A stretch of 37,642 nt of DNA. It comes from a virus. Taxonomy: Duplodnaviria > Caudoviricetes. The notes beneath the pieces were generated by a model, which was given only the letters and a program-made list of their open reading frames with translations, did not search any database and was not told the origin of the DNA. The position numbers and the translations under genes were made by a program. Shown here in pieces: positions 510 to 35,569 of the stretch (within the stretch, counting starts at the first letter, position 1; each line of letters starts with the position of its first letter). The stretch is taken from positions 1 to 37,642 of IMG/VR virus record IMGVR_UViG_3300022930_000009. One strand, given 5' to 3'.

Positions 510-2454
510 CAAAACAGTTCAACACACGAACATGACAAGGACAGATGACAAGGGCAATGTGCTGAAAGCCCCTGCCGATGTGAGCTCCTCTCCAGCAAGC
601 TTAAAGTGGTGGAAACTAGATGAAGACCAGATGGCAGCTGCGATCTCTTCAACGATCCAATTCATGGCAGATCATCAAGGTGGAAGGCTGACACAGCTGA
701 CGACCAATACCAGGCTATATGGGCATTCTGAGATGTACGGAATGGTGGGCGCTTCAAGCGTTCGTGGGGCAACGAGTGGAGTTAACGCGTCGGATCGCAT
801 ATCCTATAACGTTTGCCAATCAAGTATCGATACGGTCGAATCCAAGATGGCCAAGAACAAGGTGATCCCGACTTACATCACCAACGGAGGAGATTGGTCA
901 GCGCAGAAGAAATCAAAGCAGCTCACTAAGTTTGCCCAAGGGGTTTGTTACCAAGAAAAAGTTCATTTTAAGTCGGTTCAAGCGCTGAAAGACTGTTCTG
1001 TTTGGGGTGACGGCTTTGTCTACGTCTATAACAAGGATGGCAAGGTCGCAATTGAGAGAGTCCTTCCCCATGAGCTGTATGTAGACATGATTGAAAGCAT
1101 GTGTGCCGAACCCACTCAGTTGCACCGGGTGAAGTTTGTAGACCGCGATACTGCAAGAGAGATGTTCCCAGAGCTTGAGGAGGCAATCGATAGGGTTTCT
1201 CCCGTGGATTACAAGCTCTTGGGCAGTCAGCAGACTTCAGCAGACTTAATTCAAGTCAATGAATCGTGGCATCTGCGCTCTGGAGAGAAGGCTAAAGACG
1301 GAAAGCACGTGATTAGCGTGGGAGATGGCGCCATTGTTGAGGATTACGAGGAAGATTATTTTCCCTTTCCTCACATGGTCTATTCCCAAAGACAGCTTGG
1401 TTACTACGGACAAGGCATTTGCGAGCGTTTGGAAAACATTCAGACTGAGATCAATCGCTGCATGATTTTAAAGCAGCGCTCTCTTTACATGATGAGCTCT
1501 TTTAAAGTGCTCCTCGAGAAGGGCTCAAAAGTAGTCAGCCAGCACCTAGACAACACAGTGGGCAGTATCATCCACTACGTGGGCACAGAGCCTAAGTACA
1601 TTACTCCTCCAGCAACAAACCCTGAGCTTCAGCTGTGGATTGATACCCTGATCTCTTACGCCTACCGTCAAGAAGGCATTAGCCTCATGAATTCGACAGG
1701 TGAAGTGCCAGCAGGGGTTGAAAGCGGGAAAGCCATGAGGACTTACAGCCAGATCAATGACGATAGGCATATGTACCTCGCTCAGAAGCTAGAGGACTTT
1801 GTACTCGAGATCGTTCGTCAGGCCATCAACGTCGTGAAGAAGATCTACAAGGAAAAGGGTCATTACGAAGTGATCTTCCCCAATACTAATTTCTTAGAAA
1901 CCATTGATTGGAAGGACGTCAACCTGGATGAGGAGCAGTATGTTCTCAAAGCCTATCCAACCTCATCACTTTCTGATGACTTGACTGGACGCTTGGCTGA
2001 GATTCAAGAGCTCATTCAAGGTGGTTTTGTCTCTCAGAGGACGGGTTACCGATTGCTTGGAATGCCAGATATTGAAGCTCAAGACGCATTAGCCAACGGT
2101 CCTGAAAATAGGATCTATCAGATCTTAGAAGAGATGCTGGACGACAAGAAGGTAGTCCGGTTTCAACCCGAGTTTCATAACGAAGAGATTGCAAGGCGGC
2201 TGTCTTTAGAATTCATCAATTACGCTGAGTACATGAATTGTCCTGAAGACCGGATTCAATTAGTCAGGGATTACTTATCTGAGATCAATGCAGTAGCAGC
2301 TGAACGAGAAGCGCTCATGGCACAACAAGTTCCAGGGGGGGGGAATCAATTGAACCCTGGTACTCCCTCTCCTGGTTTAGTGCCTCAGGCTAATCCTGAG
2401 CCAGCTCCTCAAAGCAATATGATCCCGAACAACGTAGGAGGTCCACTTGTCTAG
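502..2454 (+). CDS. Portal protein
   Basis: 650 aa after TerL and before scaffold; portal-like segments (YYGQGICERLENIQTEINR, ESGKA); Pro/Gln-rich tail. Confidence 0.85.
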   Translation: MSNKTVQHTNMTRTDDKGNVLKAPADVSSSPASLKWWKLDEDQMAAAISSTIQFMADHQGGRLTQLTTNTRLYGHSEMYGMVGASSVRGATSGVNASDRISYNVCQSSIDTVESKMAKNKVIPTYITNGGDWSAQKKSKQLTKFAQGVCYQEKVHFKSVQALKDCSVWGDGFVYVYNKDGKVAIERVLPHELYVDMIESMCAEPTQLHRVKFVDRDTAREMFPELEEAIDRVSPVDYKLLGSQQTSADLIQVNESWHLRSGEKAKDGKHVISVGDGAIVEDYEEDYFPFPHMVYSQRQLGYYGQGICERLENIQTEINRCMILKQRSLYMMSSFKVLLEKGSKVVSQHLDNTVGSIIHYVGTEPKYITPPATNPELQLWIDTLISYAYRQEGISLMNSTGEVPAGVESGKAMRTYSQINDDRHMYLAQKLEDFVLEIVRQAINVVKKIYKEKGHYEVIFPNTNFLETIDWKDVNLDEEQYVLKAYPTSSLSDDLTGRLAEIQELIQGGFVSQRTGYRLLGMPDIEAQDALANGPENRIYQILEEMLDDKKVVRFQPEFHNEEIARRLSLEFINYAEYMNCPEDRIQLVRDYLSEINAVAAEREALMAQQVPGGGNQLNPGTPSPGLVPQANPEPAPQSNMIPNNVGGPLV

Positions 2455-3397: not shown

Positions 3398-3571
3398 ATG
3401 CAAAAACTTGAGAAATGGCAGCCTCTAATCATAACAAGCTTACTGATTCTCGCAGGCCTAATGGCCCAACAGATCCATAACGCGCACCAGTCTAAGTTAC
3501 TCAGCCAGGAGTGCGATCAAGTGCTTGAAATCATCGATGAGGCGGAAGAACCCAGTGGAAAAAGAGTCTGA
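3398..3571 (+). CDS. 57 aa protein with N-terminal hydrophobic helix (not in ORF track)
   Basis: MQKLEKWQPLIITSLLILAGLMAQQ...; starts 7 nt after scaffold stop. Confidence 0.55.
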   Translation: MQKLEKWQPLIITSLLILAGLMAQQIHNAHQSKLLSQECDQVLEIIDEAEEPSGKRV

Positions 3572-3995
3572 AGAGAAGTTTAGCACGAACGAGGTCTGTC
3601 AGATCGTGGGGGTTCATCCCTCTACTCTAAATCAACTGAACTACTTAGGAATCATCAAGCCCGAGTTTCCTGGAGCTCATAAGCGCGAAGGCAACTTCTA
3701 TAGTATTTCAGACATGATTAAGATCGCGGGCATTGAAAGGTTCTCAGACCTAGGTCTGCCTAAACGGTTTATTGCCCAGGTCATGTTTGGAAAGGTTGAG
3801 GACGCTTTCTTAACATTTGAGATGACGACGCGCGAGATCAAGATTCATATGGATCTAGAGAGCTTGGAATTCATCATCAGGCAAAGAGCTGATCGGCATA
3901 TCAAAGGTGAAGACGGAAGTCCTCTTTCCATTGAACGAATCACGATGAGAAGTCATGGTTCAGGAGAGTGGGGACAAGGAAGAGAAGATTCCTAA
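3525..3995 (+). CDS. MerR-type HTH DNA-binding protein (start may be 3537 or 3555)
   Basis: FSTNEVCQIVGVHPSTLNQLNYLGIIKP...FYSISDMIKIAGIERFSDLGLP fits the MerR winged-HTH pattern. Confidence 0.75.
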   Translation: MKSSMRRKNPVEKESEEKFSTNEVCQIVGVHPSTLNQLNYLGIIKPEFPGAHKREGNFYSISDMIKIAGIERFSDLGLPKRFIAQVMFGKVEDAFLTFEMTTREIKIHMDLESLEFIIRQRADRHIKGEDGSPLSIERITMRSHGSGEWGQGREDS

Positions 3996-4290
3996 ATTCA
4001 TCCTCTATCCCATGAGGGATCATGTACCCATGGAATTTGTCGATTACCGAGACCTTAGAAAACAATTGAAAGGTTCGGGCCTAAAGGTAGGCCGCCTCTG
4101 GTGTCTTCCCAGACAAAAACGCTTACAAGGCTCAACCTGGTCGGGCAGATGGGCATGGATTGTCTTTGAGGAAGAAAGATGCATCGGCTACATGAATATG
4201 TTTATCGAAGATGAAGAAGAGGACCTGTCTTTGAAACAGACCTATTACGGTCCTGGCCCTATGAAGATCTATAAATTTCAGAATTTTTAA
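3955..4290 (+). CDS. Hypothetical protein
   Basis: 111 aa ORF overlapping the MerR gene end. Confidence 0.6.
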   Translation: MVQESGDKEEKIPKFILYPMRDHVPMEFVDYRDLRKQLKGSGLKVGRLWCLPRQKRLQGSTWSGRWAWIVFEEERCIGYMNMFIEDEEEDLSLKQTYYGPGPMKIYKFQNF

Positions 4291-4529
4291 AACGACTACC
4301 AGGCTGAAGGATAATCAAGTACCTGGCAGTCGCCATCATTAGAACGGAGTTGCTACTCCCCTTTATTCTCACCCCTAAAACTAATTTGCTCAAATGTTTA
4401 TTTTGATTTAACGTGAATATATAAAACCGTCCACTCATTGACAAAAGCCTGAATTGTTGAACCAAGGGCACCTTAAGGAATGGTTTGAGGCAAGCAATTG
4501 CTTAAATATTAAACAATTAAGGTGCATCA

Positions 4530-4793
4530 ATGGCAAATATTTCACAAAGTACCGTTCCTGGTATTTTAAAAGAGTTTTACGACGGGCAAAAAGTTCAGTG
4601 GCTTACATACAAGGACAATCCAACCCTTGCTATGATCAAGAAAGAAGAAAAATTCCCAGGGAAATATTTCCCACAACCCGTTGTATACGGTTTAACCACT
4701 GGTTCTGCTACATTTTCTAGCGCATTTAATAACCAAGCTTCCCCTCTAGTTGCTGAGTTTTTGATCACACGCGTATCTGATTACGCTTTGGCT
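4530..4793 (+). CDS. Major capsid protein, exon 1 (88 codons)
   Basis: AAGGTG then ATG; GILKEFYDG...NPTLAMIKK...GKYFPQPVVYG resembles a capsid N-terminus; joins exon 2 in frame as DYALA|TIDGQ. Confidence 0.88.
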
Positions 4794-4988
4794 AAATAGG
4801 CTGGCCAAATAAAATTCTCTCTGATTGACTTGGAAGCCCGACAGGGTGACAGGGCGGAAGCGAAAGCACCGTGAACGACTAAGTGAGAGAACCCGAAAGG
4901 GATGCGATAGTCTGAACACTGGCAATAAATAAAACCAGTGAGGAAAATCCGAAGAGGTTTTCCCCCTCGAAAGAGGAGTAACAAAATG
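4794..4988 (+). ncRNA. Group I self-splicing intron, 195 nt, no ORF
   Basis: P1 TTGGCT(4788-93)/GGCCAA(4803-08) with U.G at the splice site; P3 TTCTCTC(4815-21)/GAGAGAA(4885-91); P4 CTTG/CAGG; P5 GCCC-gaca-GGGT; P6 CGG..GC-gaaa-GC..CCG; P7 GACTA(4877-81)/TAGTC(4908-12); P8 CCC-gaaa-GGG; three 3' hairpins; terminal G; removal restores the frame. Confidence 0.92.
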
Positions 4989-6008
4989 ACCATTGACGGA
5001 CAGCTTTTAGCAAGTGCACAATCCGATCCCGGTTCTTTCATCGACGGCGCAGAATTGATGATTGACGCCGCGTTTCAAACGGCCGTCAACAGAATTGCAT
5101 CAGCAATGTTTAGAAATGGTGCTGGAACCATCGGACAGATTCTTTCTGTTTCGAATATTTCCGGTAACAACTATTTAGTCACTCTGACTAACCCAGATGA
5201 CGCTGTTCAGTTTGAGCCAGGCTCAGCTCTACAGAGCGTTCAGTTCGTTGACGGTTCAGGAACTATTCCAGCTGACGTTGGAACGATTACTTCCGTGAAT
5301 CGTAACTCAGGCACAATGGTCGTTGTTTCCACAACCAACATTGCGACCAACTGGGTTGCTGGTTACTACCTTGCAGTACAAGGTGACTTACCGACTACTG
5401 CTAACAACAACTTTCAACCCAACGGTTCTACCGGCACAAACGGCATGCTTAAACTTGCAGGTTTTGCTGCTTGGCTTCCTATTGCTGGCCCTCCAGTATC
5501 GGACAGCTTTTTCGGCGTTAATCGTAACTTAGACGTTCAACGTCTTGCTGGTGTGACCTTTGACGGTACTGCTCTTTCCATCGAAGAAGCTCTTCTTCAG
5601 GGAACTGGCCGTATTGCAATGAACGGTGGCCGTGTTGACACAGGGATCTGTTCTTACGCTACCTACACAGCTTTGATCACTTCACTTGGATCTAAAGTTC
5701 AATACATCAATGAAAAGATTGGTGACATTGGGTTCAGAGGCGTTCAGGTCAATGGTGCAAACACCGTTATGAATGTTTTCCCAGATCGTAACTGCCCAGA
5801 TGGTTTGATCTATTGTTTGGAAATGGATAGTTGGACGCTCAGAAGTCAAGGTCCTGCACCCCATATACTTACGTATTTGGACCAGATCGAAATTTTACGC
5901 ACGCCGGGGGAGGACTCGGCACAATTACGCGTCGGTTGGTACGGCAACATGTACACCAACCGTCCGGGTCACAATGGTGTGGTCGCGGTGCAGCTAATGG
6001 AATTCTAA
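4989..6008 (+). CDS. Major capsid protein, exon 2 (spliced product 427 aa)
   Basis: Capsid-like segments (AMFRNGAG, FFGVNR, VFPDRNCPDGLIYCLE); highly expressed codon bias; follows scaffold. Confidence 0.88.
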   Translation, partial: TIDGQLLASAQSDPGSFIDGAELMIDAAFQTAVNRIASAMFRNGAGTIGQILSVSNISGNNYLVTLTNPDDAVQFEPGSALQSVQFVDGSGTIPADVGTITSVNRNSGTMVVVSTTNIATNWVAGYYLAVQGDLPTTANNNFQPNGSTGTNGMLKLAGFAAWLPIAGPPVSDSFFGVNRNLDVQRLAGVTFDGTALSIEEALLQGTGRIAMNGGRVDTGICSYATYTALITSLGSKVQYINEKIGDIGFRGVQVNGANTVMNVFPDRNCPDGLIYCLEMDSWTLRSQGPAPHILTYLDQIEILRTPGEDSAQLRVGWYGNMYTNRPGHNGVVAVQLMEF

Positions 6009-6017
6009 GTATTTGAA

Positions 6018-6090
6018 ATGATTATATAATTTCCCAATACTGAATGAGTTTTAGATTTATTGTTCGGTATTGGGAATTATGATAATTCAT
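6018..6090 (+). promoter_or_regulatory. Long imperfect hairpin upstream of the HNH start
   Basis: atgattatataatttcccaatactgaat pairs with gttcggtattgggaattatgataattcat; ends 5 nt before ATG 6096. Confidence 0.7.
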
Positions 6091-6095
6091 AACGC

Positions 6096-6752
6096 ATGAA
6101 GTTATGCAAAAGATGTAATACTGAAAGAGAATTTAAAGATTTTAGGAAAGCGCCTCAGAATAAGGACGGACTACAGTCCTATTGTAAATTCTGTCAAAAT
6201 AAGCTGAAGACAGAATGGTCAATAAAAAATAGAGAAAAAGTGCGAGAATACGCAGCTAAAGTTTATAGAGAAGATCCACGCAAAGCTAAGGGCAAGGCAA
6301 TTCAAAAGTTTTTCAAAGGGTTATCTTGGCAGCAGGCAATGGAAGTATTTGAAGAGATGCTTAAGGTCCAAGAATACTCTTGTAAGATATGCAAGGTTCA
6401 TCAATCAAAGAAAGTATTGCACGTCGATCATTGTCATTCGAGAGGAGTGGTGAGAGGCCTTTTGTGTGCTGAGTGCAATATTACGTTAGGAAGAATAAAG
6501 GAATCTATTCCCACCCTTGAATCGATGATCAAGTTTATACAAGACTTGAAGAATATAGAAGTGCCTGTTTATACAAGACGATTAATTCTAAATGCGCCAA
6601 AAAAACCGAAAACTCATTGCCCACAAGGACATGAGTTAAGTGGTGACAATCTTATAATGCGTAAAAATATAAGAAGATGTCGTATTTGTAAAAATGAACA
6701 AGAACGAGCAAGAGAAAAAAGAAATAAAGAAAAGCTGTTACAGCTGAGTTAG
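6096..6752 (+). CDS. Free-standing endonuclease VII-like HNH (putative homing endonuclease)
   Basis: CKIC...LHVDHCHSRGVVRGLLCAECNITLG EndoVII motif; N-terminal CxxC pairs; C-terminal KTHCPQGH...RRCRIC module; AT-rich. Confidence 0.88.
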   Translation: MKLCKRCNTEREFKDFRKAPQNKDGLQSYCKFCQNKLKTEWSIKNREKVREYAAKVYREDPRKAKGKAIQKFFKGLSWQQAMEVFEEMLKVQEYSCKICKVHQSKKVLHVDHCHSRGVVRGLLCAECNITLGRIKESIPTLESMIKFIQDLKNIEVPVYTRRLILNAPKKPKTHCPQGHELSGDNLIMRKNIRRCRICKNEQERAREKRNKEKLLQLS

Positions 6753-6762
6753 AATATTCTGA

Positions 6763-6802
6763 GAGGGCACCTGAGGTTTAGAGATTACCCTTGGGTGTCC
6801 TC
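6763..6802 (+). promoter_or_regulatory. Stem-loop after the HNH gene
   Basis: gagggcacctgagg...ccttgggtgtcctc; no strong U tract, so role unclear. Confidence 0.5.
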
Positions 6803-6872
6803 GCCTTATAAACTCGTGGGGACGAAAGAAATAGGGCTGATAGTTTAATACCTAACCTTATGGGGGTTTTTC

Positions 6873-7532
6873 ATGGCTAATCGTAGATATACACAATTTT
6901 TCAATACTCTTTATGGAAAGCCAGTTCTTTTGAACTGCAAATTTGTTGTGACTCCAACTGATCCAACAGGCGTTACCTTGCTTAAGGGTCCTGGGATCTC
7001 AAGAGTGTTCATGCACACTTCAACCACTCCTGCTGCAGGCAATCCTAATCCTGCAAATGGTGTGATCATTGTTAAATTCAATGACAACTTTCCATTGTTC
7101 TTAAACATGTCAGCTTCAGTTTCAGCTGCTGCTGGAACACCGACCGGAACACTGACTGCAAACACGATGTACACCATCACTTCTGTGGGAACGACAACCA
7201 CTGCTCAATGGGTAGCTAAGGGTCTTCCTGTTGGAACAGTGCCAGCAGTAGGCGTTGCGTTCGTAGCAACAGCTTCTGGAGCATTGGGTGGAACTGGAAC
7301 AGCTGCTCCTGCAGTAGCAACGGGTGCAGGCGTGGATCATTTCGAAGTCGTAGGTAATCCAGAAGCGACTATTAATTCTTCTGCCGCTGTACGTTTGGGT
7401 GCTTCACAAGGAAGTGGTTCTTACATTTTGGTTCAGGCTTTCAACGCAGGGGCAATCGTAGCACCTGCTACTGGATCAACGGTGAGAATGCAGTTCTTGT
7501 TCAATAACACCTCGATCTTAAATCCAAGCTAA
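6873..7532 (+). CDS. Virion structural protein, possibly capsid decoration
   Basis: A/G/T-rich beta-type 219 aa; capsid-like codon bias; follows capsid locus. Confidence 0.6.
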   Translation: MANRRYTQFFNTLYGKPVLLNCKFVVTPTDPTGVTLLKGPGISRVFMHTSTTPAAGNPNPANGVIIVKFNDNFPLFLNMSASVSAAAGTPTGTLTANTMYTITSVGTTTTAQWVAKGLPVGTVPAVGVAFVATASGALGGTGTAAPAVATGAGVDHFEVVGNPEATINSSAAVRLGASQGSGSYILVQAFNAGAIVAPATGSTVRMQFLFNNTSILNPS

Positions 7533-34822: not shown

Positions 34823-35096
34823 CGTCTTTCTAGACAACCGGTATCAAGAACTTCTATTCGCAAAGAACGAAGCCAAAGGTGAATTTGACCCTTTGAGAGA
34901 AGCTGAGATTAAAGCAACCCAAGAGATTCGGTCTGCTTACTTAACGGCTCTCAAGTGGGTGACTAAGCCAAAGGTGCTTGTCTCCTTCGTCCGCACCCGT
35001 CTTCAACTAGAGAAAGAACCTGAGCCCGTGCTTCTCAACGAGATGAAGCGGCTTCAGAAGGAAAAAGAGAAGAAAGATAAAGCAGAAAAGAAGTGA
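34812..35096 (+). CDS. Hypothetical protein
   Basis: Overlaps both neighbours. Confidence 0.65.
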   Translation: MKFDVFLDNRYQELLFAKNEAKGEFDPLREAEIKATQEIRSAYLTALKWVTKPKVLVSFVRTRLQLEKEPEPVLLNEMKRLQKEKEKKDKAEKK

Positions 35097-35569
35097 GCAA
35101 TGAATGGATCATACGTCCTGCAACGGGCCATGATCTTGCTTTCATCTACGACAGTTGGAAAACTTCGTACCGATTAGGCTCTTACTTCGGAAAGTCCTTT
35201 CGAAGGTTTAATAAGAACTACCAGGGCTACGACCGGGTCATTGATTGGATATTGACTAGGCCGTTGACTAAGATTCTAGTTGCTTGCTCAAGGGAAGAGC
35301 AATTTGTGGTCTTTGGCTACATCGTCTATCAGGAAGATTACCTACATTACGCGTTTGTGAAGAAGTCGTTTAGAAATTTAGGGATTTTTAATTCACTCTT
35401 TAAAGAGGCAGAGCGCCCTTACAACTTCTCACACCGAACGCAGCACTTCGAACCCGTTAGCAAAAAAAAAGAACTCAATTACGATCCGTTTATTCTCATG
35501 AGGGGGCAACATGGCCAAGACACCGACACCAGCGACGACAACGAACCCGTCTACTTTGGAAACGCCTAA
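35093..35569 (+). CDS. GNAT-fold acetyltransferase
   Basis: IRPATGHDLAFI start; VFGYIV; LHYAFVKKSFRNLGI motif A. Confidence 0.8.
   Translation: MSNEWIIRPATGHDLAFIYDSWKTSYRLGSYFGKSFRRFNKNYQGYDRVIDWILTRPLTKILVACSREEQFVVFGYIVYQEDYLHYAFVKKSFRNLGIFNSLFKEAERPYNFSHRTQHFEPVSKKKELNYDPFILMRGQHGQDTDTSDDNEPVYFGNA

Follow-up and report, generated by a model that had tools for sequence, protein, structure and literature searches.

The capsid locus

The window, i.e., the whole stretch of 37,642 nt that was analysed, is a contig of a tailed phage containing portal, adaptor, ERF and terminase genes, and its major capsid gene is divided into two exons on the plus strand, at 4530–4793 (88 codons) and 4989–6008 (339 codons and a stop). 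The intervening 195 nt (4794–4988, same strand) have stop codons in all three frames, and the two exons, when joined, read as 427 amino acids with a single terminal stop across the junction DYALA|TIDGQ. This in-frame joining confirms the proposal of the initial annotation that excision fuses two open reading frames into one capsid protein. The fold, the reading frame, the homologs and a model of the intron family together identify the insert as a phase-0 group I intron that lacks both an ORF and the P2 helix. Beyond the capsid stop lie a 29-bp hairpin (6018–6090) and a free-standing gene with an Endo VII motif (6096–6752), both on the plus strand. Two ORFs of 156 and 111 aa at 3525–4290, between the gene in the scaffold position and the capsid gene, have no match in Pfam or PHROG, and the first resembles, by eye, a helix-turn-helix regulator. 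Breaks seen among relatives in the gene that follows (6873–7532) were considered as introns and rejected, being in-frame protein insertions.

Exon 2 matches the profile phrog_9953 (major head; E = 2.8e-6) and, just below the cut-off, SU10_MCP (E = 5e-5), a profile that 37 of 64 intronless homologs also match. A sequence search of the PDB gave nothing useful, and a first fold model, built on exon 2 only from 12 sequences (pLDDT 55), had no structural match at E ≤ 0.001. The model of an intronless homolog (L283; 79% identical, pLDDT 85) matched the SU10 capsid at E = 4e-10 and 220 chains at E ≤ 0.001, and through this match to solved phage capsids the protein is assigned to the HK97-fold major capsid proteins. 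Judged by the same model, exon 1 would encode the N-terminal arm and the E-loop region, and the exon junction falls in a strand (residues 80–89 of the model) just ahead of two helices. Because the junction breaks a strand of the capsid fold, each exon is probably incomplete, and neither is likely to form a whole subunit by itself.

Intronless homologs are colinear across the junction that the initial annotation had placed at DYALA|TIDGQ. All 26 loci of a first scan (some of them redundant) were contiguous there, and four further scans gave 101 distinct loci after the window's own contig was left out. Among these, 41 of the 43 close loci (at least 60% identity) and 57 of the 58 distant ones cross the junction in one alignment, making 98 in all, and the remaining three do not cover the site. 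No second carrier of an insert at codon 88 was found among the 101 loci (98 spanning the site, three lacking coverage). Exact removal of the 195 nt restores a gene that is colinear with intronless alleles.

Fold and covariation of the intron

The minimum free energy fold of 4780–5000 has a z-score of −3.2, with none of 200 shuffled sequences equally stable, and it contains P1 and the 3′ hairpins P9, P9.1 and P9.2, which are also evident from the sequence. P1 (4787–4794 with 4802–4809, within 4787–4809) has 8 bp, among them the U4793·G4803 wobble that marks the 5′ splice site. At the other end, a conserved tail (4977–4988) terminates in the ωG at 4988, and its last three bases, ATG, are in frame with exon 2. 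P3 (4815–4821/4885–4891) encloses, within 4815–4891, the helices P4 (4829–4832/4850–4853), P5 (4836–4839/4844–4847), P6 (4854–4857/4869–4872) and P6a (4860–4861/4866–4867). P7 pairs 4875 and 4877–4881 with 4908–4913 (within 4875–4913), leaving a bulged C4876 and a predicted guanosine-binding pair, G4877–C4912, and P8 follows P3 at 4892–4894/4899–4901. The hairpins P9 (4917–4922/4935–4940), P9.1 (4942–4949/4956–4963) and P9.2 (4965–4968/4973–4976) occupy 4917–4976. All of these elements lie on the plus strand; P3 to P8 are supported by pairing, and P3, P6 and P6a by compensatory changes as well. The core pairings claimed in the initial annotation (P1 with its U·G, P3 to P8, the 3′ hairpins and the terminal G) were thus all found, as was the claimed absence of P2 and of an ORF: Only 5 nt (4810–4814) separate P1 from P3, which leaves the intron without P2. 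The weak points of the fold are P4, with just four standard pairs, a weak P10, and a P9 loop of 12 nt that is not a GNRA tetraloop.

Covariance-model support of the kind that the initial annotation had suggested seeking did not come from Rfam. A scan of the whole window gave no match at E ≤ 1, so that the intron falls short of RF00028 (Intron_gpI; gathering threshold 50 bits), a model described as incomplete (PMC11878797). Relatives of the intron were instead collected with a search pattern derived from both strands of P7, which matched 129 loci in 8 of the 64 parts of IMG/VR (an estimated 1,000 or so stretches for IMG/VR) and, in the genome collection, 82 loci, of which 52 passed a loose filter, a few of the 52 being clearly chance matches. 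From these, 104 compact cores were reduced to 55 non-redundant ones and aligned with the core of the window. Across the 56 cores, a mutual-information scan that was supplied with no structure ranked pairs of P8, P6a, P5, P3 and P6 at the top. When the named structure is imposed, 97% of cells are paired and 18 of 29 pairs are compensatory, a level reached by none of 500 shuffles, and slid controls are only 39–49% paired. Compensatory pairs make up 7/7 of P3, 5/5 of P6/P6a, 3/3 of P8, 2/4 of P5 and 1/4 of P4; the invariance of P7 carries no weight, because the search pattern had itself imposed it. A P3–P7 pseudoknot core, a P4–P6 domain and P8 are therefore present with covariation, the strands of P7 being complementary but pattern-fixed. 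The capsid intron scores 114.5 bits against the family model R1, for whose construction this sequence was also used.

Just inside P3, columns 13 and 93 of the alignment A1 (window positions 4823 and 4883) hold GG in 37 cores, AA in 16 and AG in 3 of the 56, and it is likely from this covariation that they form a non-canonical G·G/A·A pair.

A P7.1/P7.2 extension is tied to subgroups IA2 and IA3, those of the classic phage introns. In all 56 aligned cores the 5′ strand of P7 is separated from the 3′ strand of P3 by 3 nt (4882–4884 in the window), leaving no such extension, and the lineage therefore does not fit IA2/IA3; its lack of P2 is compatible with subgroup IB4. The extension between P7 and P3 is described as a group I feature in PMC1995217.

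Splicing, family and mobility

According to established group I chemistry, a free guanosine bound in P7 would attack after U4793, at the U·G pair of P1, and the freed exon would then attack after ωG4988. Such two-step splicing would generate the sole full-length capsid mRNA, and capsid production should, judging from the sequence, depend on it. To this extent we uphold the view that an abundant virion protein relies on a near-minimal self-splicing ribozyme, although 'near-minimal' holds for the length of the intron and not for its structure, which retains three 3′ hairpins. Since both Azoarcus-type tetraloop struts (the P2 and P9 loops) are missing or altered, efficient protein-free splicing is something that we infer.

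By automatic calling, P1 adjoins P3 with no P2 between them in 46 of the 109 family members, and lengths range from 193 to 251 nt (109 members) apart from two outliers, one of which is a known mis-call. The length lists are approximate because the boundary caller misplaces some ends (e.g., L211 was called at 356 nt and measures 204 nt by hand). The window's intron is third shortest on the called list; L138 was provisionally called at 193 nt and L037 at 194–195 nt (195 nt when measured by hand, its spliced frame being open), and the description 'shortest known group I intron' was rejected on account of these two. Members of 193–196 nt occur in other genes as well. A prophage tape-measure lineage (L167, L168, L179, L199, L204 and others in the genome collection, together with L100, L117 and L122) is built the opposite way to the window's intron: P2 is kept and P9.1/P9.2 are absent, with lengths of 196–206 nt where the spliced frame reads through and 216 nt in one case.

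Because P2 and a GNRA loop on P9 are missing, the insert might be a true group I intron whose splicing requires a helper protein from host or phage. Its 12-nt P9 loop and four-pair P4 would fit such a requirement, in that the Azoarcus intron is described as using its P2 and P9 tetraloops as struts (PMC2813881), and some Bastillevirinae introns may need cellular factors, according to PMC11878797. However, the family is spread over many unrelated phages and host genes, which argues against a dedicated helper, and P9.1/P9.2 are kept in the window. Moreover, P2 is present in all 14 members whose 3′ part is short, which hints at compensation at the level of the RNA (only a hint, because 11 of the 14 belong to the one tape-measure lineage). 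We regard an obligatory helper as unlikely.

Among 20 other family loci, RF00028 matched only L220, at 40.3 and 20.7 bits and hence under threshold, and none of the 20 lies in an rRNA gene. Only 2 of 50,697 annotated phage records match the intron. A literature search (most subscription journals lay outside its scope, and the supplements of PMC12880540 and PMC11835236 may list members) found no paper describing a capsid-favouring compact lineage. The family is a large, capsid-favouring and uncatalogued lineage that RF00028 barely detects.

The preference for capsid genes emerges from 130 distinct IMG/VR matches, 114 of which have a flanking exon of at least 30 aa. PHROGs, counted by hand, named 69 of these 114 exons: 58 as major head proteins (six PHROG families), 6 as tape measure, 4 as ribonucleotide reductase and 1 as portal, with 45 left without a name, in a sample that is motif-biased, contains redundant contigs and covers one eighth of IMG/VR. 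Many matches in the genome collection show a tape-measure junction (these were not tallied). Phage group I introns are usually stated to prefer genes of nucleotide and DNA metabolism, as in PMC12350094, and the capsid bias of this family runs counter to that statement. The suggestion of the initial annotation that a capsid gene is an unusual host is not supported, since capsid genes account for 58 of the 69 named exons and published capsid introns exist.

Three individual loci of the family merit description. In GenBank record MW202674.1 (L249, 16569–18084), a P22-type coat gene is given as two CDS and the family intron is annotated as a 'hypothetical protein'. The cultured Roseobacter phage CRP-118 (OR420741.1; L250, ~35056–35455) has a ribonucleotide reductase gene split by a 400-nt gap that contains an unannotated family core. 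In L203 (~1201–1678, minus strand), a family core adjoins or sits within a match to a tmRNA gene (RF00023, 128.7 bits).

Within the capsid family of the window, sister introns that are 79–90% identical over the aligned part occupy other sites, and the P1 guide of each matches its own exon. One (L005, 79% identical) is inserted after about codon 402, and two (L211 and L035) near codon 382, where both are out of phase; the L211 intron, at 90% identity over the core and 204 nt, also lacks P2. The capsid gene of another relative (L057, 2330–4150) contains three ORF-less introns of the family. That sisters occur at different positions, each with its own guide, is evidence that the lineage moves among sites. 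An RNA contig of run X6 matches the intron body (4805–4964) but carries a different 5′ flank, and so represents a sister intron elsewhere. Four runs, all of them contigs, were compared with the window and yielded no spliced joint, and the junction was covered by none of the RNA records. On the evidence of sequence, then, we have a precise intervening sequence, an intact and covarying core, and a lineage that is mobile among sites.

Two of the three L057 introns are almost identical to each other and share one P1 guide, and both of their sites end in codons D-A. A second and different kind of intron-like insert, bearing an Endo VII ORF, is also present in the window's capsid family, near capsid codons 45–48 in L254 (1573–2223), L256, L275 (332–808, with the ORF shortened), L350 and L353, and near codon 305 in L064 (1295–2018). 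The P7-like strands of the codon-45 inserts deviate from the usual consensus, and R1 misses these inserts, giving a weak match in L064 only.

The intron is likely to have arrived by homing or co-conversion, with an endonuclease supplied in trans, and a candidate supplier lies next to the capsid gene. The product of 6096–6752, a putative homing endonuclease of the F-CphI/DHHRN-like type (PF02945, E = 7e-19), shares 31% identity with F-CphI across 137 aa (E = 9e-17); a search for close relatives of this gene gave only two weak loci. The hairpin that precedes the gene (z = −5.0; 0 of 200 shuffles as stable) may limit its expression, and L211 has a terminator-like hairpin at the equivalent place. 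The gene is optional, being absent from 28 of the 29 close relatives that have at least 400 nt of downstream sequence. Of these 29, L211 combines intron and nuclease, L005 carries just the intron, the nuclease never occurs by itself, and both are missing from the other 27 (Fisher p = 0.07). An ORF-less intron beside an adjacent, optional, free-standing homing endonuclease gene is the arrangement expected of collaborative homing.

It is conceivable that intron and nuclease form a true collaborative-homing pair, as do the S-PM2 psbA intron and F-CphI, in which the nuclease would cut intronless alleles at codon 88 and the intron would confer immunity. The nuclease is F-CphI-like and optional, and the nearest sister intron, that of L211, likewise has such a gene 82 nt past the capsid stop. 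With the window itself included, the nuclease accompanies two of three intron carriers and none of 27 others (p = 0.007, a post hoc addition). In addition, codons 85–86, beside the intron site, read YA: Residue 85 is F in all 41 close relatives, none of which has Y, and every one of the 57 distant relatives with coverage there has Y. This pattern would fit a short co-conversion tract and speaks for homing at codon 88 by some agent. Against such a pairing, the L211 intron is at a different site (near codon 382) and its nuclease is just 35% identical to that of the window, the intron of L005 is not accompanied by a nuclease, the nuclease of the distant L339 is not accompanied by a family intron, and 1,020 nt separate the intron site from the stop codon, against 78 nt in S-PM2. 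Furthermore, of the 31 conserved positions within residues 370–405 (~5830–5940) of the window's capsid, 6 deviate from the consensus, a larger number than in any of 43 close relatives, as would be expected if the nuclease target adjoined the nuclease gene; this segment is a possible immunity or co-conversion tract. Because the nuclease thus more likely targets the 3′ end of the capsid gene than the codon-88 site, as far as the sequence indicates, the intron would be a hitchhiker at best, and we doubt that the two constitute a dedicated pair.

Two further explanations dispense with splicing or with the intron altogether. The capsid might be made as two chains, an 89-aa N-terminal one and a 340-aa one starting at the ATG at 4986–4988, with the RNA an inactive relic; this start is in frame with exon 2 and has a Shine-Dalgarno-like GAGGAG 7 nt upstream (4973–4978). 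But four bases of that motif are paired in P9.2, the core shows no decay, and the break would fall inside a strand of the capsid fold in the L283 model. Because the ATG ending is a common tail of the family (38 of 77 automatically called members) and the sisters in L035 and L211 are out of phase, with no such start, we consider two chains very improbable. An assembly artefact or chance structure is scarcely credible, for although no near-identical second carrier at the site appears among the 101 distinct loci, P1 fits the exon beside it, removal of the insert is precise to the nucleotide, covariation is strong, and a contig of run X1 spans 4400–6900 unchanged at depth 27 (it may be the source of the record and so is not independent).

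We are confident that a group I intron sits in the major capsid gene and belongs to a large, mobile lineage of compact phage introns (about 190–250 nt) with many insertion sites, most of them in major capsid genes; it likely arrived by homing or co-conversion and likely splices by the standard two steps. The adjacent F-CphI-like gene would be the candidate source of the endonuclease, more likely cutting near the capsid 3′ end. A bolder generalization, which we put forward tentatively and with rather less than even confidence, is that the family forms a group I subgroup outside the present classification, numbering hundreds to thousands in phages and specialized on major capsid genes, which reaches a size floor of about 190–195 nt by dropping either P2 or P9.1/P9.2 but not both, and which changes sites by swapping P1 guides and borrowing an Endo VII nuclease in trans. 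If true, some of the smallest self-splicing introns in nature would belong to this subgroup, and a class of capsid genes annotated in two pieces would find its explanation. In any case the family interrupts the gene that serves most often as a marker in phage classification, as in MW202674.1. Its members of 193–196 nt, with and without P2, offer natural material for learning which of the peripheral helices are indispensable to a minimal ribozyme; if active, they are candidate compact splicing scaffolds.

Relation to known introns

The Azoarcus intron belongs to subgroup IC3. At 195 nt, the window's intron is indeed shorter than this pre-tRNA-Ile intron, which measures 205 nt (PMC13168695), as the initial annotation had noted; the size is not exceptional, however, given family members of 193–196 nt and the short, ORF-less introns of the Jug jumbo phages, of which 2,513 averaging about 206 nt are reported in PMC12880540. 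The two introns are alike in size and in having no large peripheral domains (PMC13168695, PMC2813881), but the Azoarcus intron, as described in PMC2813881, keeps P2 and its P2 and P9 tetraloop struts, whereas that of the window has no P2 and an enlarged P9 loop, and adds P9.1/P9.2. The Jug phages resemble the present case further in that their genomes have stand-alone nucleases, and 37 of 76 predicted introns there are backed by metatranscriptome reads; the hosts named in that account are terL and nrdD rather than capsid genes (PMC12880540), and the likeness drawn here is one of description.

Introns without P2 are described as common in organelles, in subgroups IC2, IA1 and IB4 (PMC1995217). 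With these the window's intron shares the absence of P2 and of a P7.1 extension and a short P5 (PMC1995217, PMC6125680); the archaeal IB4 introns listed in Table 1 of PMC6125680 differ in being all in rRNA genes and at least 248 nt long, against 0 of 20 family loci in rRNA.

In S-PM2, the psbA intron and the free-standing nuclease F-CphI are described as a case of collaborative homing, with splicing and cleavage shown (PMC6083498, PMC5931967, PMC3984707), whereas the window's intron is known from its sequence. The S-PM2 intron is likewise ORF-less and small (212 nt), runs from P1 straight into P3 by our reading of the sequence, and has an Endo VII-motif nuclease gene directly downstream, whose product is the one 31% identical to ours. 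It differs in its host gene, in its core sequence and in the distance of its site from the stop codon (78 nt as against 1,020 nt). The family model R1 gave no significant score with the S-PM2, BAKA or LittleE introns (best E of about 1 for LittleE and BAKA).

Group I-type introns in virion structural genes are themselves familiar. For mycobacteriophage LittleE, splicing of a capsid intron was shown; a capsid intron of the lactococcal phage Tuc2009 is cited in the same paper, and BAKA has a tail intron (PMC3706429). The LittleE intron differs in its 819 bp and its nuclease ORF, and the BAKA intron measures 265 bp (PMC3706429), but the remark of the LittleE authors that a capsid subunit needed in abundance presupposes efficient splicing (PMC3706429) would apply equally here. 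In crAss-like Delta and Zeta phages, group I introns in major capsid genes reach up to four inserts per gene, though these, according to PMC7886860, were found through their endonuclease domains. Taken alone, the window's intron adds a further example to the group I introns already known from phage capsid genes; it is outweighed by the family to which it belongs, one that is large and nearly invisible to RF00028.
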